Of a stretch of 64,000 nucleotides of DNA, positions 24,527 to 42,835 are shown one piece after another (within the stretch, counting starts at the first letter, position 1; every line of letters begins with the position of its first letter). A program made the translations under genes and the position numbers. The notes below the pieces were generated by a model. It ran no database searches. It was not told the origin of the DNA and worked only from the letters and a program-made list of their open reading frames with translations. Source of the DNA: a phage; NCBI GenBank assembly GCA_012212665.1, contig GCA_012212665.1_4517.1. One strand, written 5' to 3'.

Positions 24527-24754
24527 TTAACAGCAAATAACTTCTTCAGTATCGTAAGCATTAATTGTTCCTCGAACAAAACGAACACCACCATCATCCC
24601 AACGGATTTCGGCATTAAATTTGACGTCTTCACCATCCATCATGAATGAGTGTACGACTACGTCATCATAATATCCAAGTCCGTATTTCAACGAAACTTC
24701 TTGTGCAATCAAAGCGCCTAATGTGTTATTAGGTTTAATCCAACGATTTAACAT
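24527..24754 (-). CDS. Hypothetical protein
   Basis: ORF of 75 aa with GAGGAG Shine-Dalgarno, promoter upstream. Confidence 0.45.
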   Translation of the reverse strand: MLNRWIKPNNTLGALIAQEVSLKYGLGYYDDVVVHSFMMDGEDVKFNAEIRWDDGGVRFVRGTINAYDTEEVICC

Positions 24755-24782
24755 AATGTTCTCCTCTTGAGTAAGTAAGAAT

Positions 24783-24812
24783 ATCTTAACATAGTTTTTA
24801 GTGGATGTAAAC
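24783..24812 (-). promoter_or_regulatory. Early promoter
   Basis: Minus strand GTTTACATCC-...-TAAGAT; same GTTTACATCC start as the promoters at 30411..30440 and 53380..53408. Confidence 0.45.
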
Positions 24813-24820
24813 TCTAGAAA

Positions 24821-24846
24821 CGAAAAAAGGAATCCCGAAGGATTCC
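24821..24846 (-). terminator. Intrinsic terminator downstream of soc
   Basis: Minus-strand hairpin GGAAUCC-UUCG-GGAUUCC followed by UUUUUUCG. Confidence 0.65.
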
Positions 24847-24855
24847 TTAAATTAT

Positions 24856-25092
24856 TTAACCACTTACTGGTGTAGGGGTAAACATTGCAGCGTTCTTAGT
24901 ACGCCAATCTGCTGCGTCAGTCACCACAGTAGTGTAAGCAGCTTTTTCAGACGGGAAAGTCTGATAATGAGAATCTGCAATCCGATGTTCGTTTGAATAA
25001 ATCTCAAACGGAACAGAAACTTCCATACCTTTAACTTCTTTGCCTTCACCAGCAGGATGCGTAAAGGTTTTGATGTTTACATAACCACCCAT
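24856..25092 (-). CDS. soc: Small outer capsid protein Soc
   Basis: 78 aa; matches T4 Soc (GYVNIKTF, HYQTFPSEKAAY.TV). Confidence 0.85.
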   Translation of the reverse strand: MGGYVNIKTFTHPAGEGKEVKGMEVSVPFEIYSNEHRIADSHYQTFPSEKAAYTTVVTDAADWRTKNAAMFTPTPVSG

Positions 25093-25123
25093 AATTAACT
25101 CCTTTGTTGTTTAATTACAGGTG

Positions 25124-25131
25124 TATTTATA
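25124..25131 (-). promoter_or_regulatory. Late promoter (TATAAATA) upstream of soc
   Basis: Exact TATAAATA on the minus strand about 30 nt upstream of the soc start; soc is a late capsid gene. Confidence 0.6.
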
Positions 25132-25137
25132 ACTTAA

Positions 25138-25659
25138 TTAGTAACCATTATCCTGACGTTCAAAGTTGTGTTGGTTTTTCAAGTAGTAAAGTTTAAAGAT
25201 TTCTTCAGCAGAAAGACCAAGACCTTGGAACATATTTAGAACGAAATGCAGAATATCAATCATTTCAAATTTAATTTCAAGCTGGTCTTCAGGAGACAGT
25301 TCATCGATACGACGATTTCGATATTCAGCATGTTGTGCTTTCCATGGCTTCCATACACTGCTAGCGGCTTTTTCACCATTGCTCATACCACCAAGTGAAG
25401 TCAGCAGTTCACGGAATTCATCATCAATATAATCTTTCTGATTACGCAGCCAATCAACAACATCACCAGCAGTAGCCAATTCATCAGGATGTTTGTTATG
25501 TTCAGGCTTGTCATTTGCCAGACGAACCTGTAAAGATTTCTGCATATCAAGCATTACCTGCAGTGGGTCTTTATCTTCGTGAATCAGAGCATTAAAATAA
25601 GCTTCTTCTGCTTTATCAACACCAGAAATAAGTTGTGAACATTCATTAAAGTGCGCCAT
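25138..25659 (-). CDS. 56: dCTP pyrophosphatase gp56 (MazG-like dCTPase/dUTPase)
   Basis: Near-identical blocks to T4 gp56 (MAHFNEC, DPLQVMLDMQ, ETAGDVV.W.R.QKD.IDDEFRELLTSLG, SPEDQLEIKFE..DI.HFVLNMF.GLG); start at MAHF. Confidence 0.9.
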   Translation of the reverse strand: MAHFNECSQLISGVDKAEEAYFNALIHEDKDPLQVMLDMQKSLQVRLANDKPEHNKHPDELATAGDVVDWLRNQKDYIDDEFRELLTSLGGMSNGEKAASSVWKPWKAQHAEYRNRRIDELSPEDQLEIKFEMIDILHFVLNMFQGLGLSAEEIFKLYYLKNQHNFERQDNGY

Positions 25660-27689: not shown

Positions 27690-28349
27690 TTAACCTCGAT
27701 TCATAAATGCATTAAATATTTGGTCATCAACAGAAATTTCTAATTCGGCTTCAATTGCTTCAGCCTTTTCTTCAGGTGGTAATTCGTATCCACACACTAC
27801 AATTTTTTCATCGATATCAAAATATACAGAAGCAATACGATTAATGTTACTTTCAGTTAAGTCTAAATCAACATCAACATCTTTTTGACCTACACTTAAA
27901 GGATAACTAATACGGGTTATTTTATTATCTTTAACAAAGAGTCCACCAACATACTCTGTACTACGTTTGAAGTTTACACGTTTCCGAATTGAAAGATATG
28001 ATACATCTTTACCGTGAGCTCGGCTCATAGGACATAATGAATAGCTAGAATAAGAGATGTCAAATCCTACACCTTCAATATGAGCCAACGTGTCATGAGT
28101 AAACCAATTATAATCATATGCCAAATCCATTAAATTATAATATGTGAAAGGCACTGGATTAACATCATATGTTGTACCTTTAAAATCAGCCCAGGCAACG
28201 ATTTCGTTATCTTTAACAATTACAAAAATTACACCAATATGGTATCCGTTATTATTTTCATTCGGCGTTATATTATAACATTGTGCATTAGGAAATTTAC
28301 CATATTTAAATGGTGCGTTTTTGTGCATGTAATAAATCATATTATTCAC
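27690..28349 (-). CDS. Hypothetical protein
   Basis: ORF of 219 aa. Confidence 0.5.
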   Translation of the reverse strand: MNNMIYYMHKNAPFKYGKFPNAQCYNITPNENNNGYHIGVIFVIVKDNEIVAWADFKGTTYDVNPVPFTYYNLMDLAYDYNWFTHDTLAHIEGVGFDISYSSYSLCPMSRAHGKDVSYLSIRKRVNFKRSTEYVGGLFVKDNKITRISYPLSVGQKDVDVDLDLTESNINRIASVYFDIDEKIVVCGYELPPEEKAEAIEAELEISVDDQIFNAFMNRG

Positions 28350-28635
28350 CTGTGATTTCGGTTACGATATCTTTGTTATCGAAATTAGGGTCACAATACA
28401 AAACATAGTTGTACTGCATGATACCGCCAGACTTAAGTTGTTCAACAACTTTATTAACCATATTAGGACGGTCTCGTTTAGTGATGTTCATGATATCAGA
28501 GAAGATTTGTTGTTCAACATCTTCTTGATTTGCAGTCATTGACCACTCACAGAGGTCTTTATCATAACCTGCTGTAACTGGAGCTGGTGCACATGATACT
28601 GCGAGTAAGATTGCTGCCAATGATAACTTTTTCAT
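28342..28635 (-). CDS. sp: Spackle periplasmic protein (superinfection exclusion, lysozyme inhibitor)
   Basis: 97 aa with signal peptide; GYDKDLCEWSMTA and KSGG.MQYNYVLYCD match T4 Sp (gene 61.3). Confidence 0.8.
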   Translation of the reverse strand: MKKLSLAAILLAVSCAPAPVTAGYDKDLCEWSMTANQEDVEQQIFSDIMNITKRDRPNMVNKVVEQLKSGGIMQYNYVLYCDPNFDNKDIVTEITGE

Positions 28636-28663
28636 TTTAACTCCTTAGTTGATTTGATAGGAC

Positions 28664-28694
28664 TACTATACCATAGTCCATCTATAATGTAAAC
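28664..28694 (-). promoter_or_regulatory. Early promoter upstream of sp
   Basis: Minus strand GTTTAC...TGGTATAGT; shares the GGACTACTATACCATA block with 7541 and 8053. Confidence 0.5.
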
Positions 28695-28698
28695 AAGT

Positions 28699-28947
28699 TT
28701 ATTCTTTTTCGCGAATAATAATTACTTGTTGAGGCTGCTGAGCAGATTTCTTTTCGGCAACGATAGACCAAATTAAAGTTCCAATCCAACCAACCATCGT
28801 CCAGTTAAAGAGTAAAGATACAAAGAAGATTGCTGTTGTGCTTTTTGTGCCACGAATAAGTGCGATTACCCAAGGCAACATGTAAATGATGATCGAACCA
28901 ATACCTGCGATTAAAACTGCTACTGAACTAGCTACGAATAATTCCAT
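28699..28947 (-). CDS. Small membrane protein, superinfection-immunity-like
   Basis: 82 aa with two TM helices; motif WVIALIRG resembles the superinfection immunity protein family. Confidence 0.45.
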   Translation of the reverse strand: MELFVASSVAVLIAGIGSIIIYMLPWVIALIRGTKSTTAIFFVSLLFNWTMVGWIGTLIWSIVAEKKSAQQPQQVIIIREKE

Positions 28948-29008
28948 GTTAATTTCCTCTTGATTTGTTATGTTTATAGTATCTTGTTTTAACTTTGGCG
29001 TAAACCAA

Positions 29009-29377
29009 TTAATTAAATTTGTTTAAACGTTCAATACACTGGACGTAGTTATTCGCGATTTGTTTCTGGGTAGGCTCTTTACCAGTTGTTTCAACATAGC
29101 GAATGAATGCGATTTCAGTAGCCTGTAAGCAATGTTCTTTAACGCGTTGTTCTTTTGACAATGCTACAGTATCAGAGTCACGATAACGTTGAGCATGGGC
29201 ATCAGCTTGAATCATTCGATTACCTACAGTAACCGGGTCTTCTACTTCAACTTTAGGTTGGTTGTACTGTTTAACATTCGGGTTATAAATCAATTGGCCA
29301 ACATTATTAGGGATAAAGCCGTGAGCACCACATCCAGTTAATCCAAATACCATTGCTAAAGCGATTAATTTTTTCAT
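29009..29377 (-). CDS. Putative lipoprotein
   Basis: 122 aa; signal peptide with lipobox LTGC. Confidence 0.5.
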   Translation of the reverse strand: MKKLIALAMVFGLTGCGAHGFIPNNVGQLIYNPNVKQYNQPKVEVEDPVTVGNRMIQADAHAQRYRDSDTVALSKEQRVKEHCLQATEIAFIRYVETTGKEPTQKQIANNYVQCIERLNKFN

Positions 29378-29448
29378 TTCAATTTCCTCTGTAGTTGATA
29401 GAAAGATAGTAACACAGTATGCGGTGCTTGTAAACAGTTATTTTAAAA

Positions 29449-29637
29449 TTATCGAAAATCTGCTTCGAAAACTTTCTCGTCATTAATAAATGCTTTAACT
29501 AATGCATTGTTCACTTCAGCAAGTTGTACCGTAACCCACTCGATTTCTTCGCGATCACCTGATAATATGATATCTTTAGTGAACATCTCGCCGCTTTTAA
29601 ACCAGCCAATAAAAGTAACTTTAGTTAATTTGCTCAT
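29449..29637 (-). CDS. dmd: Dmd antitoxin (inhibitor of host RnlA/LsoA toxins)
   Basis: About 62 aa; matches T4 Dmd (V.F.GWFK...MFTK.I......V....AEVN.ALVKAFI.D.KV.E.D.R). Confidence 0.75.
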   Translation of the reverse strand: MSKLTKVTFIGWFKSGEMFTKDIILSGDREEIEWVTVQLAEVNNALVKAFINDEKVFEADFR

Positions 29638-29951
29638 ATTTCCTCGCAAAATGCCCATTCAGCATGATAAACTGTAGCACCTTTAGTATCATTCATTTGA
29701 ACTACATCTACCGGAGAAATTACTCGATAGAGACGTGGTTCACCTCCATAAGAGCGTGCTGCTCGTCCTGCGTAAATCTTTGCTAAACCGATATCTTCAG
29801 TAAAGAATACACGATTCAAGTTTTTCTTACGTCCGGTTTCAGACAGAACTCCTGTTTCTTCAGGAGGACAAAGCATGTTTTCGATTTTAGCTGAACTACT
29901 TGAACCGTGATAAAAAATCTTAAATTCTGCTTTACAATCGATGGTTTTCAT
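29634..29951 (-). CDS. Hypothetical protein
   Basis: ORF of 105 aa with GGAGAA Shine-Dalgarno. Confidence 0.5.
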   Translation of the reverse strand: MKTIDCKAEFKIFYHGSSSSAKIENMLCPPEETGVLSETGRKKNLNRVFFTEDIGLAKIYAGRAARSYGGEPRLYRVISPVDVVQMNDTKGATVYHAEWAFCEEI

Positions 29952-31921: not shown

Positions 31922-32263
31922 TTAAAAGAATTTAAATTTTTTCTTGGTTCGTTCATTAAAAGCTTGTTGTACCTGCATTGTAACACATTTTTCAACATGT
32001 GGTGCAAGTTCTGCTTTTCTGTCCTGGTCAAGAACTGCAAAGTCCATTACGATTTTACCATCAACCCAATCTAGTTTTGTAATATAGACTATATGATGGG
32101 AACCATCTTCAAGTGTAATCAGAATCTCTTGAATGACATTTTCCATTGCTGAACGGATAATTTTAAGAGATTCATTAAACACTCGTTCTTTGCGAATGTC
32201 TTCCCCTTCCGAAGAAGGGGATTCATCAACGATTTCTAGATTTAAATCATCGAGATTATTCAT
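31922..32263 (-). CDS. 40: Head vertex assembly protein gp40
   Basis: About 113 aa from internal Met MNNLDDLNLEIVDES; position between 41 and uvsX. Confidence 0.55.
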   Translation of the reverse strand: MNNLDDLNLEIVDESPSSEGEDIRKERVFNESLKIIRSAMENVIQEILITLEDGSHHIVYITKLDWVDGKIVMDFAVLDQDRKAELAPHVEKCVTMQVQQAFNERTKKKFKFF

Positions 32264-33428
32264 CGAAATCTTCCATTTCGTCAAGGTCGTTTTCAATATC
32301 TGCTGCAGACGGAGCATCAGAAGCTTTAACCGGAACTTTAGTTGTTGCTTTGCAATTAATAAGGTCGTTAACAGCGTCATCAACTTCTTTAATAGAAGAG
32401 ATAGCGCCTAGTTTATATTTAGTTTCAATTGCATCTCGGAAAGGTTTGTGTTTAAACAACGGTCCCCAGAATTCTACACAATCAGTAGCTTTAGCACGCC
32501 ATGATTTCTCTTCACGAACCATTTCGCCTGTTTCTTCGTCAAGAAATTCGCGAGCATACCAACCGGCTTTAGGTTTAACTACAAAACCAATTTCAGTTGC
32601 CATTTCTAGCAAGCCACTGAATGGGTCAATACCGCCATCAAAATTAACCGTGATCGGGAAAGTAGATTTCTCTTTAACTGTACGAGATTTTTCTGCTTTC
32701 AACGTGAAGTCATAACCGGTCAATTCTGTACCTTCTTTAACCTGACGTTTAGAGATAAAGAATACAGTGTTAGCAGAGTAAAGAATACCTGTACCACCAC
32801 CCATAATCTCTTTAGGATATAGTCCGCCGATTTCCATTGCTGTATGGTTGATTGCAACACATGGAATATCTTTAATAGTCAGATACGGGGTTACAATACG
32901 GAAAAGAGATTTAAGTGCCTTAGCACGAGACATATCACCTACGACTTTCTCGTTCAATGCATCTTCGGTTTCTTTCTTAGATGCAGTATTACCGATTGAA
33001 TCGATAAAGATAATAACTTTATCACCGCGTTCAATAGCGTCAAGCTGATTAGTCATATCAACTTTAAGTTGTTCGACGGACTGAATTGGTGTGTGAACTA
33101 CACGGTCTAAATCAACACCCATTGAACGAAAATAAGATTCTGAAGCACCAAATTCCGAGTCATAAAACAAACAGATTGCATCTTTATATTTCTTCATATA
33201 CGCTGCAACCATAGTCAGCCCAAACAATGTTTTAAAATGTTTAGAAGGTGCAGCAAAAATAGTCAAGCCTGATTGCAATCCTGCATTCAGAGCACCACCT
33301 AGTGCGATATTCAACATCGGAATACGAGTAGGGACTTCATCACGATTATTAAACAGCTTAGACTTAGTCAAGTCTGCAGTCATTTTAGAAGTAGAAGCTT
33401 TAATCAGACGAGATTTTAAATCAGACAT
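32256..33428 (-). CDS. uvsX: Recombinase UvsX (RecA-like)
   Basis: 390 aa; RecA-fold Walker A (AAPSKHFKT) and T4 UvsX N-terminus MSDLKSRLIKASTSK. Confidence 0.9.
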   Translation of the reverse strand: MSDLKSRLIKASTSKMTADLTKSKLFNNRDEVPTRIPMLNIALGGALNAGLQSGLTIFAAPSKHFKTLFGLTMVAAYMKKYKDAICLFYDSEFGASESYFRSMGVDLDRVVHTPIQSVEQLKVDMTNQLDAIERGDKVIIFIDSIGNTASKKETEDALNEKVVGDMSRAKALKSLFRIVTPYLTIKDIPCVAINHTAMEIGGLYPKEIMGGGTGILYSANTVFFISKRQVKEGTELTGYDFTLKAEKSRTVKEKSTFPITVNFDGGIDPFSGLLEMATEIGFVVKPKAGWYAREFLDEETGEMVREEKSWRAKATDCVEFWGPLFKHKPFRDAIETKYKLGAISSIKEVDDAVNDLINCKATTKVPVKASDAPSAADIENDLDEMEDFDE

Positions 33429-33526: not shown

Positions 33527-34075
33527 TTAACGAGCCCATTTGATGATTTCTGTAATCAAACCATTACGTTCGCTTGCATTAAATCCTATAACTTTGTTAG
33601 CACCATCATGATTAAGTAATTGATATGTTTGGATTTTGTTATGAATTGCAAACTCTTCAAAATGTGAAATGACTGTATTAAAACCGAATGAAGACAAAGT
33701 AATAAGGTCGTCTTCAAAACTTTCAGTCATTTCATTACGTGTTAAAATAATTGTGAACACATCATGGTTTTGGCAAAGACGAACATAGTCCTGTTCATAA
33801 ACGTCAAGAACCGAGTCCGCATCTTGTCGAATACGTCCATAAACCCAGTTACTAATATATCCACGGTCTAACAGATAAATCTTAGTAGGGTCTAAATAAT
33901 TCAACATCGTTTCGAAACAGCCAACTTCATTTCGAGACTTAACATCGAAACGTCCATCAACTGTTCGTTTAGGGAAATCAATCTTTACATATCTTTCACT
34001 AATTTCCATTATGTCATTAATGAAAGTTGTTTTACCAGCATTATCTGGGCCGTCTACTAAAATAATTTTAGCCAT
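33527..34075 (-). CDS. P-loop nucleotide/nucleoside kinase-like protein (thymidylate kinase / dNK fold)
   Basis: 182 aa; Walker A GPDNAGKTT and LLDRGYIS (DRY/DRH-like) motif; part of the uvsX-43 insertion. Confidence 0.5.
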   Translation of the reverse strand: MAKIILVDGPDNAGKTTFINDIMEISERYVKIDFPKRTVDGRFDVKSRNEVGCFETMLNYLDPTKIYLLDRGYISNWVYGRIRQDADSVLDVYEQDYVRLCQNHDVFTIILTRNEMTESFEDDLITLSSFGFNTVISHFEEFAIHNKIQTYQLLNHDGANKVIGFNASERNGLITEIIKWAR

Positions 34076-34076
34076 T

Positions 34077-34976
34077 TTATTCCTCGATTACGACATCTTC
34101 GTATTTAGGTATATTATACGGTGAAGAAATTAAAGCATTAAAGTAGATGAACTCACCAAGACCTGGATGGAATACTTCTTCAGGATTTTCGAAATATTGA
34201 ATCTTCGGACGTCCTTTAAGAATTTGATAGTACTCAGTTTTAGTTGGATTAAAAATTCGAATCAGCGCTTCTTCAGGATACTTATTTCTGTCGAAGCTAT
34301 TATTTGGATCGGTTATATAAAGCGGTTGACCTAATTGAATTGCACATTCAACCACTTGTTCAAAACGATAACATGGGTCACTAATTCGAAATGGATGAAA
34401 AATACCATCTAGATGAATAGGAGCCAAATCACCTACAAGACGCTGCATGATGGAAGGACGTATAACTTTCTGAGTTACGATAATCTTATTACCATCTGCA
34501 CCTGCGTTAACCAGCACTTCCTTTTGACGTTCATTCAACACAGTAGTTTGAAGTGAACGATTAACTGACAACATATCGGTTTTTAAGAATTCATCAATAT
34601 AAAAGCGTGGTTTATTAGGGTCTGCAGTGATATTGAAATTGAATTCTACGTCAAAAGCGCCATCATATCCAGTGATATCTGTGATTAGAAAATCACAATC
34701 ATAATAAGCAATTAATGAATCAACAACAAATTCATTTTCAGACCAGAAATATTTACGAGTGTTATACGCGTTATCTTTATACCATAATGGAACAAACTTA
34801 AATTCTGGGAAAAGACGTTCACATTCTTTAATATCAGATGCATTACGTGGATATGTAATCACATCACCCGGATTAGCACGGTGCAAATGAAGTTGGAAGT
34901 TGCCATCCTTAAGGATAGCATACTGTCCAGTTTCATAAGACCGCATACTCAAGATTGGTACGCGGAAAATAGCCAT
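34077..34976 (-). CDS. Hypothetical protein at the T4 beta-gt locus; candidate modification transferase
   Basis: 299 aa, no recognisable motif; occupies the position of beta-glucosyltransferase between uvsX and gene 42. Confidence 0.4.
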   Translation of the reverse strand: MAIFRVPILSMRSYETGQYAILKDGNFQLHLHRANPGDVITYPRNASDIKECERLFPEFKFVPLWYKDNAYNTRKYFWSENEFVVDSLIAYYDCDFLITDITGYDGAFDVEFNFNITADPNKPRFYIDEFLKTDMLSVNRSLQTTVLNERQKEVLVNAGADGNKIIVTQKVIRPSIMQRLVGDLAPIHLDGIFHPFRISDPCYRFEQVVECAIQLGQPLYITDPNNSFDRNKYPEEALIRIFNPTKTEYYQILKGRPKIQYFENPEEVFHPGLGEFIYFNALISSPYNIPKYEDVVIEE

Positions 34977-35692
34977 TAGTCAAGGAATCCTTTAACATAA
35001 TCAAAATCACGTTCAAACACATGGGCACTTACCATGGTATGAGTATAATCACCAACTTCTACACCGCATTCGTTAGCGATATAATGAAGTAATTTTCCTT
35101 GGAGATAAAAATCCAACTGCATAACAACAGCACAGTTCTGAGAACGCATATGGCAGTGGGTATAAAGCTTACCATCACGAATATAATAAGTCACTGAGTC
35201 AGTACATGGATATTCAAGTGTTTCGTCCGAATCAAGCAAAGCCTGATCAGAACTTTCTAGAATTTGGAACACAACTCTTCGAGAGTTAGGTTTCTCTTTA
35301 AGTTCTTTTAGAAGAGCTGGTAATTGGGCCGCAATGCGAGGACCATAGAAAGTGTTGAAGTTCGCCGGCAAAGCGTCTGATTTAGGTTTAGAAATAAATT
35401 TAGCGACATTAGGATATGCCTTAAACGCTTCTTCTGCATCAGTACCACCAGAAATCATAAACTTCCAGAAGTCTTCGGCATATTCATAAGAGATGCGGTT
35501 AATACGTGGGTCGGTCATTTTGAATGATGATGGATTGTCAACAACTACTGTCATGGACCCAATTTCATTACAACGTCCAATACGAGAATCAGTTACGAAT
35601 TCAGGGTTTTCTAAAATTTCACGATTGACTGCTTTAAATGCGGTTTGAAAATCTGCGGCTTTGATATATTTCATTGTGTTATGTTTTCCCAT
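34976..35692 (-). CDS. 42: dCMP hydroxymethylase gp42 (thymidylate synthase family)
   Basis: 238 aa; active-site region YPCTDSVTYYIRDGKL...HMRSQN aligns with T4 gp42 (FMCTNTVQYLIRD...NMRSND). Confidence 0.85.
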   Translation of the reverse strand: MGKHNTMKYIKAADFQTAFKAVNREILENPEFVTDSRIGRCNEIGSMTVVVDNPSSFKMTDPRINRISYEYAEDFWKFMISGGTDAEEAFKAYPNVAKFISKPKSDALPANFNTFYGPRIAAQLPALLKELKEKPNSRRVVFQILESSDQALLDSDETLEYPCTDSVTYYIRDGKLYTHCHMRSQNCAVVMQLDFYLQGKLLHYIANECGVEVGDYTHTMVSAHVFERDFDYVKGFLD

Positions 35693-35734
35693 GTTTACCT
35701 CAATACAATTTATTATATACTCAATTCATAAAGC

Positions 35735-35974
35735 TTATTTGAATTTCTTGGCAATGTTGATATAACGTAAAGCTTCAGAATCTATACTTCCAAGAACACT
35801 ATGAAGGAATGCATCAGTGTAGTATTCCAATTGAACAGGTTCTTTAATCACTTTAGCCGCTTTGGTTTCAAACAGGCCCATAAGGGCCTTTTTAAGAATT
35901 TGTTCGTTAGTGTTCAGTTTCATAGTCAAAATCTCTTCGTTAAGTTTATAATTAAAACTTTTTCTAGAAATCAT
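35735..35974 (-). CDS. Hypothetical protein (imm position, but not hydrophobic)
   Basis: ORF of 79 aa between gene 42 and the Cys-rich protein. Confidence 0.4.
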   Translation of the reverse strand: MISRKSFNYKLNEEILTMKLNTNEQILKKALMGLFETKAAKVIKEPVQLEYYTDAFLHSVLGSIDSEALRYINIAKKFK

Positions 35975-37131
35975 TCCGGGTACCTCAAAGCGTCATCAGA
36001 GTTAGTTATATCAATAATAGATATGGAGTTTTCTGCTAACCCGTTTTTAGATAATTGACGTTTATAATACCTTTCACAATATGTACACGTTGACCCACAG
36101 ATTTCATTAGCACAATCAAAATCTGGGTGTCTGAACCACCTTTTTTCTAAAAAGCCATCTAACAAAGAGGTTTCAATATTTACTGTATGTGAAAACTCAG
36201 TCTCATTTTCAAGAGTGAAAATAGTCTCTAAAGGCTTCCACAGTTCTAACAAATTACCTTCAAACTTTTCAGAAGCGTATGCTTCAAGAACTTTCAAAAT
36301 GTAGTCTGTGCTACCTGTACGTCCTGAAACTTTGAATTGAGTGATACCAATATCATTATAAAGTTTCAAATCTTGAGGACGAACAAAACGAGTTCTCAAC
36401 CAGTTAAATGGGTCTGTATCACGAGCTTTAATACAGTGCTGCATAGGATATCCATTTAAGGATTTAGCATCGTCAGCGGTAACATCAGTACTATGGAAAA
36501 TATAGCAAGAGTCACGATAGCTACAATGTGTTGTATACCCTTTACCAGCATTAGAACAGAACTCATTTACAAGAACTTCAAATATTATATTGTTCTTATT
36601 GCAAAACTCTGCTGCACGCTTCAGGAAAGAAACTGAACGGTTCTTATGAATTCCGCAGCAGACCTTTTTGATGTTATATTGGTCATGTAAGTATTTGATT
36701 TGAGTTACAGCATCGACATGTAGAATTGTTGAAACTTCAATCTCAATATCTTTATTGACTTCACGAACAATTTCCATAACAACAGGGTTAGCGATAGTAA
36801 TACGCCATACGCCTATTGACCAAAGATACTGAACATAATCCTGAATAGCTTTCTTCTTCCACTCAACTAGTTCTCTTTTTGAACCAGGATTTATCGTGTT
36901 GAGTGTATAGTTAAAGCAAATACCTAATTCGTTACAACGTTTAACGTAGTCTTCTAACATCTTTTTGTCAACGTCAGGAAGCCTAAAATCAGGTCTGGCT
37001 GCTACAAAAGCCATTTCTCTTGTAGAGCCATATACTTCGTTTATCAAGCTATTAGGATAGGTTTTATTGAGCTCTACGATTTTATCAAGAAGAGCTAAAT
37101 CAAAATTCGTTCCGATTTTAAAAGTATTCAT
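35971..37131 (-). CDS. Cys-rich putative metalloenzyme (possible peptidase U32-like / Fe-S protein)
   Basis: 386 aa; C-terminal CANEICGSTCTYC cluster (C-x4-C-x3-C-x2-C) and EVLVNEFCSNAGKG block loosely resembling the U32 family signature; assignment tentative. Confidence 0.45.
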   Translation of the reverse strand: MNTFKIGTNFDLALLDKIVELNKTYPNSLINEVYGSTREMAFVAARPDFRLPDVDKKMLEDYVKRCNELGICFNYTLNTINPGSKRELVEWKKKAIQDYVQYLWSIGVWRITIANPVVMEIVREVNKDIEIEVSTILHVDAVTQIKYLHDQYNIKKVCCGIHKNRSVSFLKRAAEFCNKNNIIFEVLVNEFCSNAGKGYTTHCSYRDSCYIFHSTDVTADDAKSLNGYPMQHCIKARDTDPFNWLRTRFVRPQDLKLYNDIGITQFKVSGRTGSTDYILKVLEAYASEKFEGNLLELWKPLETIFTLENETEFSHTVNIETSLLDGFLEKRWFRHPDFDCANEICGSTCTYCERYYKRQLSKNGLAENSISIIDITNSDDALRYPE

Positions 37132-37191
37132 TTTTTTTGCATCTCGCGTTAATTGATGCGATGGTTTTTTTTGCAGGTCTTACTTAAATTA

Positions 37192-37593
37192 TTATAGATT
37201 CGGTTTATACGATTTAAATGTTTCGAATTCGCCTTTATTCATAAGAGCTTTGAATTCGTCAGGACGCATAGCTTTGTCGTCGATAATCCAATCATATACT
37301 GGTTTATGTGTTAGCAAATTATGGTACTTCAAGCCAATGTTTGCCAAGTTCTGAATCAGACTTGGGAGAATGTCAATTGCTATACGACCAGGACCTACTG
37401 ACTTCATACCGCGAGCAGTGTAAAGCGTTATGGTATGCCCTGCATCATACAGGGCATTAATGGCGGTCACCATTTCGACGTCTGGTTTGAAGTTCACATA
37501 ATCACGATTGTTATTCCACTCTGTTATACAATCATCGACATCAAAACAAAGATTAAGCATGTTTTCTACACGGTGCATTAGATTCGTTCCCAT
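37192..37593 (-). CDS. HAD-superfamily phosphatase (KdsC-like small sugar-phosphate phosphatase)
   Basis: 133 aa; motif I FDVDDCIT (DxDx[TV]) near the N-terminus. Confidence 0.55.
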   Translation of the reverse strand: MGTNLMHRVENMLNLCFDVDDCITEWNNNRDYVNFKPDVEMVTAINALYDAGHTITLYTARGMKSVGPGRIAIDILPSLIQNLANIGLKYHNLLTHKPVYDWIIDDKAMRPDEFKALMNKGEFETFKSYKPNL

Positions 37594-39266
37594 TGATGAG
37601 TGATATCGCCACCGATTGGACGATAGGAAACACCAGTTTCTTTATCAGTTAGTACCCATTTACCAGGATTTTTTGTAATCAGAGTAGCCGTTACAGGTTC
37701 TGCTACGTCATAACTAATAGAGCCGTCTTGAAGTACACGGCCCATGTTACGTAATTGCTTAGTCAGAAGTTCCATACCTTTATAATATGCGGCAACCGCT
37801 TTAAGTGGATTATTCTTGAAATAACCACCTAATGCAATCCAGATAATTGCTACTGCCAAATGATGATACTCGTTAAACGAACTCATCTTTCCATATTTGT
37901 AAACTAATGGATTGATGTTAATAGTCACATTACAAGTTGTTTCATCAATAGTAAACTGACCCCAGGTCGGATTAGCATTGAATTCATCATAACCTGAAAC
38001 AGCATAAAGCACTTTAGCTTCATCATACAATTTTGGCCCGTAAATCTTGGTTTCACCAAAATATCCACGAGGGTCGATAAACTTGACTTCGCCGTTATCG
38101 GTAATCATAGTATTACTGAAGTTCGGGTCACCATGAATAACAGAGTACTGTCCCTGAGAACGGTTATGATAACGAATAAGATGTTCTAAAGCTTGTTTCA
38201 ACATTGGCTTCAGACGTCCAATCTTAGTGTAGTTCACATGTGTGATTTTACCAAATGAATCAATCAATGGCTGAATGCTTTCACAACGATCAATAACTTT
38301 CGTATAGAACTCTTTAGTGAAATCACGGCGAACAGTTTCAGGACTTACAAAATAAGTGTCCGTGCTGAATTTCAGTGCATCTAAAATTGCATCAACAATT
38401 TGTGGACGAGCAAGACTTGATTTGGATTTAATATATTCAAATGCCGGCTTACCTTTAATGCGTTCCATAATAAAGTGGCCGCCAGGATGATAACTTACAA
38501 TCCGTGGAACTGAATCTGATTTAACTTTCTTATACCAATTGACTTCATCTTTTTGAAGTGCAACGCCCTGTTCTGTTAAAGCAATCTTTGTTACAGTTTC
38601 TTCGCCAATTTCAACTGCATTAAAACTACGATTCAGTTCACGAACTTCATGAGCCTTTTCAAGTTTAGGCATATCACCTAAATCAATTAGATTCATAAGC
38701 TCTGATTTATTGAATGCACTGCCGTAAAGGAATTCTACGAAATCACGACCTTTGCAGTATTCGTGAATTTCCTCATCAGTAGAACCCATGTAGAATTCCC
38801 AGTCTTTGAACTGATAAATTCCTACAACATTACCACCTGTTGAACCTACGTTAGTGATATTTTCACCATCGAAATTATATCGACATTCATCACCCTTAAC
38901 ATAGATTGCGTTAACATTCCAAGACCATGAACCAAAGTCAGGAATAATATCACACCAGTTAACAATTACGTTATGGCCATCTAAATCTTTGTATAATTTA
39001 GCAAGAGCATAAGCAGAACCATACGCTTCATCAACTGTACGAATAGTCACATTGAACCCTTCTTGCTCGCAATAAGCTCGAACAGTTTCAGCAAATTTTG
39101 AATGAACTACTACAATAATTTCATCTGCGCCAAGGTCAGAATAAATTGTATACAAATTGCTCAGAATAGTGTCTTGTTTATAGTTAACAAGCACCTTAGG
39201 AATATGGTGCGTTATTGGATACAAACGAGTTGCCAGTCCAGCACCAAGAATAACAGCTTTTTTCAT
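37578..39266 (-). CDS. Bifunctional sugar-1-phosphate nucleotidyltransferase / anomeric sugar kinase (APH/choline-kinase fold)
   Basis: 562 aa; N-terminus KAVILGAGLATRLYPIT (G-x-G-T-R-L nucleotidyltransferase); C-terminus VIHGDPNFSN...FIDPRGYFG (APH/ChoK catalytic motifs). Confidence 0.7.
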   Translation of the reverse strand: MKKAVILGAGLATRLYPITHHIPKVLVNYKQDTILSNLYTIYSDLGADEIIVVVHSKFAETVRAYCEQEGFNVTIRTVDEAYGSAYALAKLYKDLDGHNVIVNWCDIIPDFGSWSWNVNAIYVKGDECRYNFDGENITNVGSTGGNVVGIYQFKDWEFYMGSTDEEIHEYCKGRDFVEFLYGSAFNKSELMNLIDLGDMPKLEKAHEVRELNRSFNAVEIGEETVTKIALTEQGVALQKDEVNWYKKVKSDSVPRIVSYHPGGHFIMERIKGKPAFEYIKSKSSLARPQIVDAILDALKFSTDTYFVSPETVRRDFTKEFYTKVIDRCESIQPLIDSFGKITHVNYTKIGRLKPMLKQALEHLIRYHNRSQGQYSVIHGDPNFSNTMITDNGEVKFIDPRGYFGETKIYGPKLYDEAKVLYAVSGYDEFNANPTWGQFTIDETTCNVTININPLVYKYGKMSSFNEYHHLAVAIIWIALGGYFKNNPLKAVAAYYKGMELLTKQLRNMGRVLQDGSISYDVAEPVTATLITKNPGKWVLTDKETGVSYRPIGGDITHQWERI

Positions 39267-39307
39267 GTTGTGGTCCTCATTGGTAAGTAGGTGTATCGTA
39301 CACTATT

Positions 39308-39451
39308 CTAGTTAAAGCATTCATACTTTGCTTGTAGTCCAATCATAATCCATCCGATTATAAGAGTCGGAATCATTACTGGAGCCGTTAAGCTCCAGTA
39401 GATAGTCATGACAAGCATCAATAGTAAAAGTCCTATTGTTATTGCTTTCAT
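39308..39451 (-). CDS. Small hydrophobic peptide (47 aa)
   Basis: Unannotated ORF MKAITIGLLLLMLVMTIYWSL...; its ATG overlaps the TGA of the SIS gene (ATGA). Confidence 0.3.
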   Translation of the reverse strand: MKAITIGLLLLMLVMTIYWSLTAPVMIPTLIIGWIMIGLQAKYECFN

Positions 39452-40083
39452 TGTTCGCCTCGTAACATGGCACCTAGTGCACCACCAGGGTGGAACTTAA
39501 GGAAGTCATTAGAGGTAAATCCACGTTCAGACGAAAGGTTGATAGCAAACGTATCGATAAGCGCTAACAACAATGTAGTGGACATGGTCGGAGCCAGAGA
39601 ATTCTCATCAACCTCTACCGCGATGCCTGTACAGAACGTATAATCAAAAAGAGCTTCGTATTCTTGCGGAATGTCAGGGTTACAATGTAACAGAATCTGT
39701 TTAACCTGAGGACGAATCATACGAAGATGTTTAGCAACACCTATCATTTCTTCAGTCTTACCAGAACGACTGATGTGAACTAATACATCATTAGGCGCAA
39801 TGAATCCTGCATCACCGTGAGAATAATGCCCGGTGTTCAAATACATGCTAGGAATACCTAGTGAAGCAAAAGTCTCGGAAGCTTTAGTTGCGATATTAGC
39901 GTTCTTACCAACACCTGTAATAATTACTCGGCTTTCATAATTACTCAGTCCAGGGCGACGAAGAGTTTCAAGAATAGCATTATATCGGGCAGAGTTTTGA
40001 CTAATTACTTTAGCCATAGTGGCAAGAGATGAAGCTTGTTTTACGATTGCGTCAATAGCGATAGTGATTGGTGTAGTTTTCAT
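39448..40083 (-). CDS. SIS-domain sugar-phosphate isomerase, arabinose-5-phosphate isomerase (KdsD/GutQ)-like
   Basis: 211 aa; motifs ITGVGKNANIA, HGDAG, SRSGKTEE, APTMSTT, FHPGGALG align with the KdsD SIS domain; no CBS domains. Confidence 0.75.
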   Translation of the reverse strand: MKTTPITIAIDAIVKQASSLATMAKVISQNSARYNAILETLRRPGLSNYESRVIITGVGKNANIATKASETFASLGIPSMYLNTGHYSHGDAGFIAPNDVLVHISRSGKTEEMIGVAKHLRMIRPQVKQILLHCNPDIPQEYEALFDYTFCTGIAVEVDENSLAPTMSTTLLLALIDTFAINLSSERGFTSNDFLKFHPGGALGAMLRGEQ

Positions 40084-40123: not shown

Positions 40124-42835
40124 TCAAAAATCGAACATATCGAACAGAGATGCTTTCTTCTCGTAATCGAGTTTCGCTGCTGATGTGAATCCTTCAAGTG
40201 GTTTAATAAATGTCTTCTCAAGGAGAACAGTGTAGTCCATCCAATGAAGTACGTCGTCTTTAATTAAATCTGTGATTTCAGTACCAGAAGGCCATGCGAT
40301 ACATTTATCACCGAATGGGTTTCCTTCACGTAAAGGCAGAACATATACTTTTTCACCTTCTACAACTTGTGGAGCATCAATATTACCTTTGATAGCTCTG
40401 TTATATGTCAGAATTCCACGAATATGGAACGGGCATTTAGGACCAGGGAATCCACCAACGTCGTATTTAGCAATGTTATTCGCAGAAGATACTGACGCGA
40501 TGCTAATATAATTCAATTGACGGAATTCTTTTTCAAACTCTTTAAAATATTCTTGTAATGATTCTTCACCTTCCTGAAGCATACGACGAATACATTCCTT
40601 AAGAGCTTTCTGTACTGCTTTAGGAGTCGAAGATTTCTGTGTTTCGAGACCCATGATTTTGAGTTTAGGCTCAGCGTAACGAGTACCTTCCATATCCCAC
40701 ACGTTTAATGCATAACGTTTCTTACCTGTCCAAAATCCGCCAATACCTTTAGAACCAAGCGGAGGACCAGCGATAGCTTCTCGGTCCATGAACATTAAGT
40801 GTTGTTTATTGTTCATGTATTCACACATTTCACAGAAACCTCTATCAATAGCTGGTTCCATACGTTCACGTGCAAACTTATCTAAGAAGTCTACCCAATG
40901 GTTGGTATCACGGAATTTAGATTCACCAACCTTATCGATAATTTTATCAGCAGATACGTAAATAGAGTCTGTATCACCATAAAGAACGAAAGCTTCACCT
41001 TCTGTACCGCAAACTTCGTTCAGATATTCATTAACTTTACGTTCAATCCACTGTAAAGCCATTTGCCCGAATGTTGTGATTGCAGTTGCATTACGCAAAT
41101 CATAATAACGGAACCAAACGTTTCCAAGTGCACCATAAAGCGAGTTGATGAGCAATTTACGGTTAATCTGTGCAGTCATACCTGCAACTTCAGTACGTTG
41201 AGCTCTAAACAACATTTCATTAAGAGATTTAGCAGACAACTTTTTAATCTTTTCTTTAATCTCATCACTGAAGTCAAAACGATAATCAACGTCTAATGGT
41301 TCATCAACAGAAAGATTAGGATTATGTAAGGCTTCTTTAATTATTTCACCATTACGTTGAGCTGCAAGCATGTAACCTTTATGTTCTTTACGTTGATTAA
41401 AGACCTTAGTGATTTCAGTTGGAACTACACCATCACGGTCTTTATAATACATCATGCCGTTAGGAGAGCAACTGTACACATCTGAAGGACGTTCAGCGAT
41501 TGCGTTAATATAATCATGCAATGGAGCTACTTTAAACGTTCCTGCTATTGTTTCTGGGCTAATATTCACTTGGCGAATAATACTTGGATACAGAGATGTA
41601 AGGTCGAAACTCATTACATATTTGTATCGATTTGGAATAGGTTCCTTAACAAAAGCGCCAGGATAAGGTTGAACCGGGTGAGAACGACCTTGTGGAATCA
41701 CCTTGTTCTGCTCTTTAAGGCTATTAAAAATAATAGCATCCCATGTTTTAATTGGACTGAACACGGATTGAATCTGAATTTTAGCATAATAACCCATGTC
41801 CAAACTCAAGTTAATGAACTGGCGTTTAGCATCAATTTGCAATACACGATATACGTCGATGATGTTATAAGAAATATATCGTTGATGATTGCTTTCACGA
41901 AGTTTAGAAATAGGACCGTCATATTTCAGTTTACCAACGTTCAATTCAAATTCTGAAATGTAATCCAGAGAATATGACGGTTGGTTCGTGAAAGAGAACT
42001 TTTTGTAAAGGTCAATATAATCAAGAACAGAGATACCAAACAATGTAATGATTTCACGAGAACCATACATGTTTTCGATAACTTTAACACGAGTTTTACG
42101 ATGTGGTGATAAACGTTTCGCAGTAGATTCGCCAAAAATATTCTTGATTCGGTTATACACATATGGAATATCAAATGACTCAACGTTCCATCCAGTCAAA
42201 ATGACAGGAGTTTTCTGTTGCCAGAAGTTGAGATATTCCATCAACAATTCTTTTTCATTATCGAATGGCATATAAATGATTTTATCGATAATTTCGGATG
42301 GAACTTCATCACCACCTTGTTCTTGAAGCTTAGCCGCAATTTCGATAGACCATTCTTCCACATTACCGTATGGAGAATTCAATAGATCAAATACGTAGAA
42401 CCTGTCGTCAATTGAGTCATAATGGGTGATAGCATCAATCGGATGTTTTGCTTGTGACGGCTCAGGGAACCCATCCGGAGATGTTACTTCGATGTCGAAG
42501 TTAGCCACACGAATTTTTGTATGGTCGTATTTGATTTCATAGTTATAAGTGTCAGACAAATACGCCAATTTGAAATCGTCCATGCCAAGTGCTTCAAGTC
42601 CGATATCTTCCATGCGTTTAATCCATTGGGAGGCATCACGCATATTAGCGAACAACTTACGAGTACACGGTTTACCGTAGATATCGAAATATTTCGTAGC
42701 CTGGCTTTCTGGACAATGAGCAAACAGTGATGGTTTATATTCTACTTCACGAGTACGTTCACGACCATTAGAATCGATGTAACGTTCAAAAATTGAATCA
42801 CCAATCTGTTCAACCGTTAAGTAAAATTCTTTCAT
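40124..42835 (-). CDS. 43: DNA polymerase gp43 (family B)
   Basis: 903 aa; exonuclease and polymerase motifs (FDIE, YGDTDS, K.KK.YA); T4 synteny regA-43. Confidence 0.95.
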   Translation of the reverse strand: MKEFYLTVEQIGDSIFERYIDSNGRERTREVEYKPSLFAHCPESQATKYFDIYGKPCTRKLFANMRDASQWIKRMEDIGLEALGMDDFKLAYLSDTYNYEIKYDHTKIRVANFDIEVTSPDGFPEPSQAKHPIDAITHYDSIDDRFYVFDLLNSPYGNVEEWSIEIAAKLQEQGGDEVPSEIIDKIIYMPFDNEKELLMEYLNFWQQKTPVILTGWNVESFDIPYVYNRIKNIFGESTAKRLSPHRKTRVKVIENMYGSREIITLFGISVLDYIDLYKKFSFTNQPSYSLDYISEFELNVGKLKYDGPISKLRESNHQRYISYNIIDVYRVLQIDAKRQFINLSLDMGYYAKIQIQSVFSPIKTWDAIIFNSLKEQNKVIPQGRSHPVQPYPGAFVKEPIPNRYKYVMSFDLTSLYPSIIRQVNISPETIAGTFKVAPLHDYINAIAERPSDVYSCSPNGMMYYKDRDGVVPTEITKVFNQRKEHKGYMLAAQRNGEIIKEALHNPNLSVDEPLDVDYRFDFSDEIKEKIKKLSAKSLNEMLFRAQRTEVAGMTAQINRKLLINSLYGALGNVWFRYYDLRNATAITTFGQMALQWIERKVNEYLNEVCGTEGEAFVLYGDTDSIYVSADKIIDKVGESKFRDTNHWVDFLDKFARERMEPAIDRGFCEMCEYMNNKQHLMFMDREAIAGPPLGSKGIGGFWTGKKRYALNVWDMEGTRYAEPKLKIMGLETQKSSTPKAVQKALKECIRRMLQEGEESLQEYFKEFEKEFRQLNYISIASVSSANNIAKYDVGGFPGPKCPFHIRGILTYNRAIKGNIDAPQVVEGEKVYVLPLREGNPFGDKCIAWPSGTEITDLIKDDVLHWMDYTVLLEKTFIKPLEGFTSAAKLDYEKKASLFDMFDF

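Follow-up and report, generated by a model that had tools for sequence, protein, structure and literature searches.

What do the genes between uvsX and gene 43 do in a T4-like phage that has no beta-gt among them? This question is raised by nucleotides 33527–40083 of the 64,000-nucleotide stretch of phage DNA analysed here (GCA_012212665.1, contig GCA_012212665.1_4517.1; hereafter the window). An earlier note on this DNA had read the interval as a pentose-activation module that replaces beta-gt and imm and leads to arabinosylation of 5-hydroxymethylcytosine (hmC) in DNA. We find that the interval matches an already published gene set, which replaces the cytosine of phage DNA by arabinosyl-5-hydroxycytosine (ara-5hoC). 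As judged by sequence comparison it very probably (about 0.9) represents the core of the Mosigvirus ara-5hoC DNA hypermodification system. Arabinosylation of RB69 DNA was reported in 2018 (Thomas et al.); papers of 2025–2026 (Mahler et al., Cell Host & Microbe; He et al., Nature Chemical Biology; Lee et al.) added the true base, the route through UDP-arabinofuranose and the phenotypes of defence evasion. Our check is mainly corrective: the labels "dCMP hydroxymethylase", "phosphoheptose isomerase", "peptidase" and "GlmU" mislead for hundreds of therapeutic-candidate coliphages. The new lead is a gene of the U32 family.

Gene content of the interval

The window comes from a Mosigvirus (RB69-like) phage and is collinear with bases 1–34000 of RB69 at 95–97% DNA identity. 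The proteins of the interval are 90–100% identical to RB69 gp45–gp55, and gp43 is 99.8% identical. About 150 phage genomes, all of them Mosigvirus, contain the whole 6.8-kb stretch at this locus with 95–99% identity, the best DNA matches being FP43 and p000v (98.4%). The synteny of the gene cluster between uvsX and gene 43 is kept across at least 10 phage genera. The module lies between uvsX (32256–33428) and gene 43 (40124–42835), and the GC content of 33527–40083 is uniform with that of the flanks (34–42%). The eight open reading frames (ORFs) of the earlier note and all of the motifs quoted there were recovered on the minus strand between these two genes, at the positions implied; one further small conserved ORF (39321–39473) was missing from its gene list. 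The genes of the interval, with two genes elsewhere in the window that belong to the same pathway or are candidates for it, are as follows (aa, amino acids; TS, thymidylate synthase).

33527–34075, minus strand: TMPK-like P-loop nucleotide kinase, RB69 gp45 orthologue (182 aa; Walker A GPDNAGKT)
34077–34976, minus strand: GT-B glycosyltransferase (GT299) by predicted fold, RB69 gp46:47 orthologue (299 aa)
34976–35692, minus strand: 5-hydroxy-dCMP synthase by homology, TS homolog, RB69 gp48 orthologue (238 aa; YPCTDS; Pfam Thymidylat_synt)
35735–35974, minus strand: 79-aa ORF, RB69 gp49 orthologue (no Pfam or NCBIfam family; PHROG 8601, unknown function)
35971–37131, minus strand: U32-family protein, putative iron-sulfur (Fe-S) protein, RB69 gp50 orthologue (386 aa; Pfam Peptidase_U32, PF01136)
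37192–37593, minus strand: HAD-family phosphatase, RB69 gp51 / HY126 AfhF type (133 aa; FDVDDCIT)
37578–39266, minus strand: nucleotidyltransferase and kinase fusion, RB69 gp52:53 / HY126 AfhE type (562 aa; GAGLATRL, HGDPNFSN, IDPRG)
39321–39473, minus strand: small conserved ORF of about 47–50 aa, RB69 gp54 region (tblastn, 88–98% to RB69 and p000v)
39448–40083, minus strand: predicted SIS-domain D-arabinose-5-phosphate isomerase, RB69 gp55 orthologue (211 aa; HGDAG, SRSGKTEE, HPGGALG)
12389–13489, minus strand: candidate second DNA arabinosyltransferase, RB69 ORF003c orthologue, between rIIA and gene 39 (366 aa)
25141–25659, minus strand: gp56 dCTPase (97% identical to RB69 gp56)

In the RB69 record (NC_004928) two of these genes are each split in two (gp46/47 at 24597–25497 and gp52/53 at 28094–29780), which PMC13326640 attributes to sequencing errors. 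The single intact 299-aa and 562-aa ORFs of the window support that view; p000v and other Mosigvirus records likewise have both genes unsplit.

Searches of Pfam (TS; NTP_transferase with weak APH/choline kinase; SIS), NCBIfam (KpsF/GutQ, KdsD, EcbF/BcbF) and PHROGs (thymidylate kinase) returned the families that had been anticipated for these proteins.

The modified base and the enzyme that makes it

Arabinose on RB69 DNA was reported by Thomas et al. 2018 (PMC6024577), where the base was named ara-hmC. Using tandem mass spectrometry (MS/MS) and nuclear magnetic resonance (NMR), Lee et al. 2026 (Nucleic Acids Research, PMC13326640) identified the RB69 modification as beta-D-Araf-(1-3)-alpha-D-Araf-O-5-hydroxy-dC (Araf, arabinofuranose), with an MS/MS base fragment of m/z 128.05 and the arabinose ether-linked to C5 of cytosine. 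An independent study (PMC13390438) found 5-ara-dC and 5-ara-ara-dC in the DNA of Mosigvirus NP and termed the hmC assignment erroneous. The central expectation of the earlier note, an activated arabinose that is made by the module and ends on cytosine of phage DNA, is thus borne out by the RB69 MS/MS and NMR data, and its acceptor base has to be changed from hmC to 5-hydroxycytosine. Nor do the nucleotide, the sugar and the pathway stand as unproven, as it had described them: UDP, D-arabinofuranose and most of the steps were published in 2025–2026.

The 238-aa TS homolog is 99.6% identical to RB69 gp48, 98% identical to the structures 9IQC, 9IR2 and 9IQU in the PDB, and 25% identical to T4 gp42, the structures of which were not among the best 60 of 108 PDB sequence matches. 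When it is aligned with E. coli ThyA and T4 gp42, the catalytic Cys163 is kept, and the Asp (QLD) at the position of ThyA-N177 denotes dCMP specificity. At the position of ThyA-D169, where both T4 gp42 and ThyA have Asp, it has Asn186 (RSQN); Asn at this position is discussed in PMC13326640 as a predictor or signature of 5hodCMP synthases. The same study reports that RB69 gp48 binds FMN and makes 5-hydroxy-dCMP with oxygen from 18O2, and that the TS homolog alone is enough for 5hodC in E. coli. By sequence, then, the 238-aa "gp42" is a flavin- and O2-dependent 5-hydroxy-dCMP synthase and not a dCMP hydroxymethylase, although many GenBank records give the gene the latter label. A T4-type dCMP hydroxymethylase was rejected for this protein on the Asn at ThyA-D169 and the 25% identity to T4 gp42. 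The gp56 dCTPase, which Table 1 of PMC13326640 lists in the pathway, keeps unmodified dCTP from phage DNA.

The sugar branch

The SIS protein (Pfam SIS), 96% identical to RB69 gp55, had been taken for an arabinose-5-phosphate isomerase. Its best NCBIfam matches, KpsF/GutQ (111 bits) and KdsD (105 bits), and its nearest solved relatives, 3ETN, 5UQI and the KdsD core 2XHZ, uphold this type. Both NCBIfam scores are under the curated cutoffs (204–505 bits), because the CBS pair is missing; the match covers positions 47–202 of the 328 in the KdsD model. The protein is an SIS-only catalytic core of 211 aa. We therefore rejected assignment to the full-length KdsD/GutQ type, which has an SIS domain and a tandem CBS pair in about 320–330 aa.

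The 562-aa protein, 96–100% identical to RB69 gp52 and gp53, agrees with the predicted fusion of a sugar-1-phosphate nucleotidyltransferase with an APH-type kinase. Pfam NTP_transferase covers residues 3–99, weak APH, fructosamine-kinase and EcKL matches fall within residues 238–410, and the protein also matches NCBIfam nucleotidyltransferase families and LicC (PDB 1JYK). The 133-aa protein is, as had been supposed, a HAD phosphatase: it carries the DxD motif FDVDDCIT and is 98% identical to RB69 gp51, its NCBIfam match is the EcbF/BcbF capsule phosphatase (E 5e-13), and PDB 9IQW is a near-identical structure (E 2e-87).

For the order of these steps we rely on He et al. 2026, who studied the "Afh" genes of phage HY126, as summarised in PMC13326640. 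According to that summary, AfhE is bifunctional, acting as a kinase on arabinose-5-phosphate and as a pyrophosphorylase for UDP-arabinose, and AfhF is a Mg-dependent phosphatase that converts arabinose-1,5-bisphosphate to arabinose-1-phosphate. The earlier note had placed the phosphatase before the kinase, with a free pentose between them; on the summarised results the kinase comes first, and the HAD enzyme acts on the bisphosphate. UDP-Araf was the donor in vitro when the glycosyltransferases (GTs) of phage DLP3 further arabinosylated RB69 DNA (PMC13326640).

Not all clusters of this kind encode the isomerase. In Klebsiella phages L006 and L007, Dhakavirus WG01, Proteus Pm5461 and Thanatos-2 no arabinose-5-phosphate isomerase gene was found within about 4.5–6 kb of the match. 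Phages without an isomerase gene at the locus presumably take arabinose-5-phosphate from host KdsD/GutQ. In these same five phages the TMPK-like kinase gene stands at a different position.

The proposed transferases and the TMPK-like kinase

The 299-aa protein, which had been left without an assigned function, has no sequence match in Pfam, NCBIfam or the PDB and is 99% identical to RB69 gp46 plus gp47. Its AlphaFold2 model (pLDDT 94.8) has the retaining GT MshA (3C4Q) as best Foldseek match in the PDB, followed by other GT-B enzymes; the same match has been reported for RB69 gp46:47. By its modelled fold the protein is a GT-B glycosyltransferase and probably the missing transferase of the module, and it has been proposed as the first, base-proximal alpha DNA arabinosyltransferase (PMC13326640). 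The candidate proposed for the second DNA arabinosyltransferase (PMC6024577, PMC13326640) is the 366-aa ORF at 12389–13489, 20 kb from the interval, which has no Pfam match and is 99% identical to RB69p003.

The TMPK-like kinase matches PHROG 761 ("thymidylate kinase", E 6e-45), is 99% identical to RB69 gp45 and gave no match in the PDB sequence search. Whether the first transfer takes place on DNA or on the mononucleotide was left undecided by Lee et al. (PMC13326640). A TMPK-like kinase recurs together with a GT299-like GT and a hydroxylase, a trio that would also fit a first sugar transfer to the mononucleotide.

Put together, the pathway would begin with gp56 dCTPase, which by homology supplies dCMP. 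The TS homolog would hydroxylate dCMP at C5 with flavin and O2, as shown for RB69 gp48, and a phage dNMP kinase encoded outside the window (a step shown for RB69 gp159) would act with host nucleoside diphosphate kinase to give 5ho-dCTP for replication. On the sugar side, the SIS isomerase is predicted to convert ribulose-5-phosphate to D-arabinose-5-phosphate, which the C-terminal kinase of the 562-aa protein would turn into arabinose-1,5-bisphosphate. The HAD phosphatase would take off the 5-phosphate to leave arabinose-1-phosphate, and the N-terminal nucleotidyltransferase would combine this with UTP into UDP-D-arabinofuranose, as the summary of the HY126 work reports for AfhE and AfhF. The 299-aa GT-B enzyme is proposed to put the first alpha-Araf on the 5-OH, and the ORF003c-type GT to add the second, beta-1,3-linked Araf.

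The U32 protein and its genomic context

Phages of this kind infect gut bacteria, yet O2 is required by the sole phage 5-hydroxycytosine synthase known, and their dCTPase removes the normal precursor. The 386-aa U32 protein may bear on this. U32 proteins such as UbiU/V, TrhP and RlhA are Fe-S proteins needed for O2-independent hydroxylations with prephenate as the oxygen donor: RlhA in the formation of ho5C2501 in 23S rRNA, TrhP in that of ho5U34 in tRNA, and UbiU/UbiV in anaerobic ubiquinone synthesis (PMC10990095; PMC6599085). The phage protein matches PF01136 with 42.2 bits (cutoff 22.4). It gave no match in the PDB sequence search, and the best PDB neighbour of its AlphaFold2 model (pLDDT 92.4) is the U32 protein 5D88. 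Across 121 homologs ten cysteines are fully or almost fully conserved (C158, C177, C192, C203, C209, C233, C340, C345, C349 and C352), the last four of which form a C-terminal CX4CX3CX2C motif of the phage family. By phmmer we found no significant pairwise similarity to E. coli RlhA, TrhP, UbiU or UbiV. By profile alignment RlhA is the closest of these four paralogs (probability 87%, 202 columns; the other three lower), and C203-x5-C209-Y-x2-H of the phage protein aligns on C-x6-CYisHA of RlhA.

Every one of the 222 U32 matches in phage genomes shows 80% identity or more. Across T4-like genera no protein of the cluster is better conserved than U32, with 79–87% identity compared with 72–83% for the TS homolog, 47–69% for the GT and 68–90% for UvsX; within Mosigvirus it is 99–100% identical. 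Strong constraint, or else a recent horizontal spread, could account for such conservation. U32 even exceeds the UvsX of the more distant phages (68–71%), which is odd for an "accessory" gene. A protein search also found U32 homologs beyond the T4-like phages, of about 360 aa and 45–58% identity. Metagenomic contigs that carry them together with phage hallmarks have dCMP deaminase, dUTPase/DCD, NT5C, deoxynucleoside kinase (dNK), uracil-DNA glycosylase, primase and DNA polymerase III (Pol III) alpha genes as neighbours.

In order to describe this context we scanned IMG/VR, and annotated the neighbours within about 9 kb of 15 T4-like and 26 other U32 loci with our own hidden Markov models. The counts are given below (CM, chorismate mutase; DAHP, 3-deoxy-D-arabino-heptulosonate 7-phosphate; DAHPS, DAHP synthase; TAGT, TET-associated glycosyltransferase).

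TS homolog near U32: T4-like 15 of 15, other phage loci 0 of 26
CM near U32: T4-like 13 of 15, other 9 of 26
CM and/or DAHP synthase near U32, DAHPS-CM fusions included: T4-like 13 of 15, other 11 of 26
GT299-like glycosyltransferase near U32: T4-like 15 of 15, other 13 of 26
AfhE-like nucleotidyltransferase/kinase near U32: T4-like 15 of 15, other 14 of 26
SIS isomerase near U32: T4-like 11 of 15, other 8 of 26
TMPK-like kinase near U32: T4-like 15 of 15, other 17 of 26
Any of GT299-like, AfhE-like and TAGT near U32: T4-like 15 of 15, other 19 of 26

The CM and DAHPS matches at the other loci were upheld by Pfam (39–72 bits). One contig (L021/L027) carries GT299-like, SIS, AfhE-like and U32 genes followed by a DAHP synthase (NCBIfam DAHPS 237 bits, as against 63 for KDO8PS), with no TS homolog within 10 kb. 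On another (L023/L028) a kinase, a GT299-like GT, U32, a TAGT-family GT and UDP-galactopyranose mutase occur together, and a TS homolog was not found.

In eight T4-like phages the small ORF beside U32 encodes an AroQ chorismate mutase (Pfam CM_2, 33–47 bits, cutoff 27). These are Serratia LC53, Enterobacter Entb_45, Klebsiella CP-p-KP-21072, Shewanella Thanatos-2, Yersinia phiR1-RT, Edwardsiella PEi20, Proteus Pm5461 and E. coli EcS1, which are all of the CM-bearing T4-like phages whose small ORFs were put to the Pfam test. In Thanatos-2 the U32-CM pair has shifted together to the opposite end of the cluster. This type of CM occurs in 51 of 50,697 phage records, and all 25 among the matches listed adjoin U32/TS genes.

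The linkage to CM or DAHPS and to GT, kinase and sugar genes makes a prephenate-dependent C5 hydroxylase the simplest reading of the U32 protein. It would act on cytosine, in a nucleotide or in DNA, without O2. In enteric T4-like phages U32 would serve as an anaerobic back-up for the O2-dependent 5hodCMP synthase. The 26 loci outside the T4-like phages include GT, kinase and sugar genes and no TS homolog, so that another enzyme must create the acceptor hydroxyl there; in such uncultured phages U32 might be the sole maker of the hydroxyl handle for GT299-like or TAGT enzymes. The phages' own CM or DAHP synthase would feed it with prephenate, and Mosigviruses, which have no CM, would depend on host PheA/TyrA.

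If this were true, a prephenate-fed, O2-independent hydroxylase would explain the anaerobic replication of these phages. Among U32 enzymes it would be the first to act on DNA precursors; it would found a phage-specific U32 subfamily and open a new route to glycosylated bases in the DNA of many uncultured phages. The pairing of U32 with the TS homolog would parallel UbiU/V and UbiH/F/I, or TrhP and TrhO, in the host, and the phage system would give a simple genetic handle on the proposed U32/prephenate hydroxylation chemistry. A full-text search for U32, prephenate and phage, which did not cover He et al. 2026 and Mahler et al. 2025, found no relevant literature; neither PMC13326640 nor the Thanatos paper mentions U32, peptidase, chorismate or prephenate in the context of the cluster.

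Alternative explanations

Several points weigh against the reading of the interval as the core of the ara-5hoC system. The chemistry attributed to the window phage rests on 90–100% identity to RB69 and HY126 proteins, the results of He et al. 2026 and Mahler et al. 2025 are taken second-hand from PMC13326640, and the DLP3 GTs, taken individually, did not act on 5hoC-DNA (PMC13326640). One rival keeps the chemistry closer to that of T4: a T4-type hydroxymethylase would make hmC, and free arabinose, rephosphorylated at C1 and NDP-activated, would be moved to it to give arabinosyl-hmC. It agrees with the name of the base in PMC6024577, with the GenBank label of the TS homolog and with Table 1 of PMC13326640, which gives the phosphatase-then-kinase order as putative function. 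However, it is contradicted by published data, namely the RB69 base fragment and NMR ether link and the 18O2 labelling of the gp48 product (PMC13326640). PMC13390438 rejects hmC, the residue at ThyA-169 and the low identity to T4 gp42 argue against a hydroxymethylase of that type, and HY126 AfhE and AfhF act on arabinose-5-phosphate and arabinose-1,5-bisphosphate, respectively, in the summary given in PMC13326640. We consider arabinosyl-hmC very improbable. Even less probable is an auxiliary "moron" function of the sugar genes in remodelling or mimicking host surface polysaccharide (capsule, LPS or Kdo), unrelated to DNA. The nearest curated families, KpsF/GutQ/KdsD and EcbF/BcbF, are indeed capsule or LPS enzymes, and PHROGs places two of the proteins in the class "moron, auxiliary metabolic gene", but the TS homolog and a GT stand interspersed among the sugar genes, in an order conserved in at least 10 phage genera, UDP-Araf is a donor on RB69 DNA in vitro, and D-arabinofuranose was found on the DNA itself (PMC13326640).

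The reading of U32 as a cytosine hydroxylase stands less firmly than that of the ara-5hoC system around it. The protein might instead be a peptidase, a "sugar or heterocycle reductase", the only description that RB69 gp50 receives in PMC13326640 (in Table 1), or a modifier of host RNA; we give such functions, taken together, about an even chance. The likeness to RlhA, TrhP and UbiU is remote: of the canonical U32 cysteine positions, four of which hold a [4Fe-4S] cluster in the prephenate-dependent factors, only two (C203 and C209) align with RlhA, in a modest match (probability 87%). In the window we found no recognisable chorismate mutase or DAHP synthase, and in E. coli the TS homolog by itself is sufficient to yield 5hodC. 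Dhakavirus WG01, an E. coli phage, has a cluster without U32, so U32 is not required for modification as such, and U32 and CM are both absent from the otherwise syntenic clusters of Acinetobacter phage Berthold and Pseudomonas phage PspYZU05. On the other side, no peptidase mechanism is demonstrated for any U32 member in the cited sources, the characterised members being O2-independent hydroxylation factors (PMC10990095). The recurrent neighbour of U32 is CM or DAHP synthase, that is, a supply of prephenate; the rare phage CM adjoins U32/TS genes in 25 of the 25 matches listed; and U32 accompanies GT, kinase and sugar-activation genes in 26 non-T4-like contigs that have no TS homolog. We hold the hydroxylase reading at slightly less than even odds because the window has no CM, Dhakaviruses lack U32 and its basis lies at the level of sequence.

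A strict rule that ties the presence of U32, in both directions, to a facultatively anaerobic host fits the Acinetobacter, Pseudomonas and Rhizobium phages examined and is broken by WG01. The ten commonest names in the U32 matches include neither Acinetobacter nor Rhizobium, although the TS homolog occurs in 57 Acinetobacter and 20 Rhizobium phage records. This distribution, with the lack of U32 in the Acinetobacter and Pseudomonas clusters, also counts in favour of the hydroxylase reading.

Comparison with known systems

The ara-5hoC system of RB69, HY126, Bas46-47 and DLP3 has the same genes in the same order, with 90–100% identity to RB69 gp45–gp55 and gp3. Nothing essential differs, the window phage being a different Mosigvirus isolate.

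The glucosyl-hmC system of T4 (gp42, alpha-gt/beta-gt, gp56 and gp1) follows a like logic of a dCTPase, a TS-family C5 enzyme, a nucleotide kinase and a GT-B enzyme with a UDP-sugar, and both phages have the pair of GT and TS homolog between uvsX and gene 43. T4 differs in adding a hydroxymethyl group from methylene-tetrahydrofolate and in using host UDP-glucose, whereas the window phage would add a hydroxyl with flavin and O2 and make its own D-Araf.

The nucleotide-heptose route consists of the SIS isomerase GmhA, the anomeric kinase HldE or HddA, which yields a bisphosphate, the HAD phosphatase GmhB and a nucleotidyltransferase, with kinase and transferase fused in HldE. The module repeats this four-step logic with the same enzyme classes, including the fusion of kinase and nucleotidyltransferase. 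The heptose pathway differs in its heptose substrate and in the ribokinase type of HldE, while the module has a pentose and an APH/choline-kinase type, and the proteins are not orthologous. GmhB is a structural neighbour of the HAD protein (PMC13326640).

With RlhA, TrhP and UbiU-V the phage U32 protein shares the U32 domain and fold. Its invariant cysteines include a motif that aligns with RlhA, and its gene neighbours in other phages suggest a link to prephenate supply; by analogy, the C5-hydroxylated pyrimidine made by RlhA and TrhP is the product that would be expected of it. It forms a separate subfamily of about 360–390 aa, so far seen in phage genomes and otherwise only in contigs that carry phage hallmarks. 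It differs from these factors in the extra CX4CX3CX2C motif, the lack of RNA-binding C-terminal domains and a putative deoxynucleotide or DNA substrate. A layout in which an oxidase provides the handle and a GT follows is known from the TET/JBP and TAGT systems, and on contigs L023/L028 and L050 U32 is directly followed by a TAGT-family GT, with UDP-galactopyranose mutase. The TET/JBP oxidase is an Fe/2-oxoglutarate dioxygenase, whereas these contigs would use the O2-independent U32; the layout does not occur in the window.

Small ORFs, insertions and the T4 arrangement

The 79-aa ORF adjoins U32, in the slot where other genera have CM. As a diverged chorismate mutase it was rejected: Pfam gave no match at E ≤ 10, and hhalign against phage CMs returned a probability of 0.08%. 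A homolog of 44% identity (g049) stands beside a true CM in phiR1-RT. The family was seen in Mosigvirus and Tegunavirus. In Mosigvirus it is 73–97% identical and evolves much faster than its neighbours; many genomes carry a version shortened to 47–58 aa, which points to relaxed selection or to decay. The predicted RNA fold of the 42/orf79 intergenic region is unremarkable (z = 0.2).

The small ORF at 39321–39473 overlaps the 3' end of the SIS gene and had no PHROG match. Annotated counterparts of 47 aa are present in p000v, EcS1, PEi20 and LC53, the last bearing the note "transmembrane segment"; the RB69 record describes it as "similar to T4 42-imm intercistronic region".

In Serratia LC53 (L004, 4352–4990) a seg-type homing endonuclease gene lies between the HAD phosphatase and U32 genes. 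The same place is occupied by a seg-type endonuclease in Yersinia phiR1-RT (L009, 3852–4490) and Edwardsiella PEi20 (L010, 3852–4490); the window has no insertion there.

The U32 subfamily was also found in very large phage-like contigs of about 27–30% GC, namely L060–L062, L065 and L066 (219–294 kb) and L019 (466 kb). The first five have CM adjoining U32 and an AfhE-like gene; the neighbours in L019 are dCMP deaminase and Pol III alpha. These contigs suggest DNA hypermodification in jumbo or mega-phages. An 86-kb contig (L020; 6001–7098, 10160–11185 and 11227–12360) has two U32 paralogs, 22% identical, with a radical-SAM/SPASM gene between them, amid NT5C, dNK, NMN-transporter and nucleoside deoxyribosyltransferase genes. 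In L024 and L025 a radical-SAM gene stands just upstream of the GT299-like and U32 genes.

The T4 order is uvsX / segA / beta-gt / 42 / imm / imm.1 / 43. No T4 segA homolog was found in the window, and no beta-gt homolog anywhere in its 64,000 nucleotides (tblastn, E ≤ 1). The supposed replacement of beta-gt and imm therefore holds for beta-gt, while imm has been moved and not lost.

28702–28947 and 29012–29377, minus strand: imm and imm.1 (each 100% identical to its RB69 counterpart; imm 64% to T4 imm)

Both genes lie about 5 kb away, between sp and 61.4 as in RB69; in T4 they adjoin gene 42. In Dhakavirus WG01 and Pseudomonas phage PspYZU05 imm is still beside gene 43.

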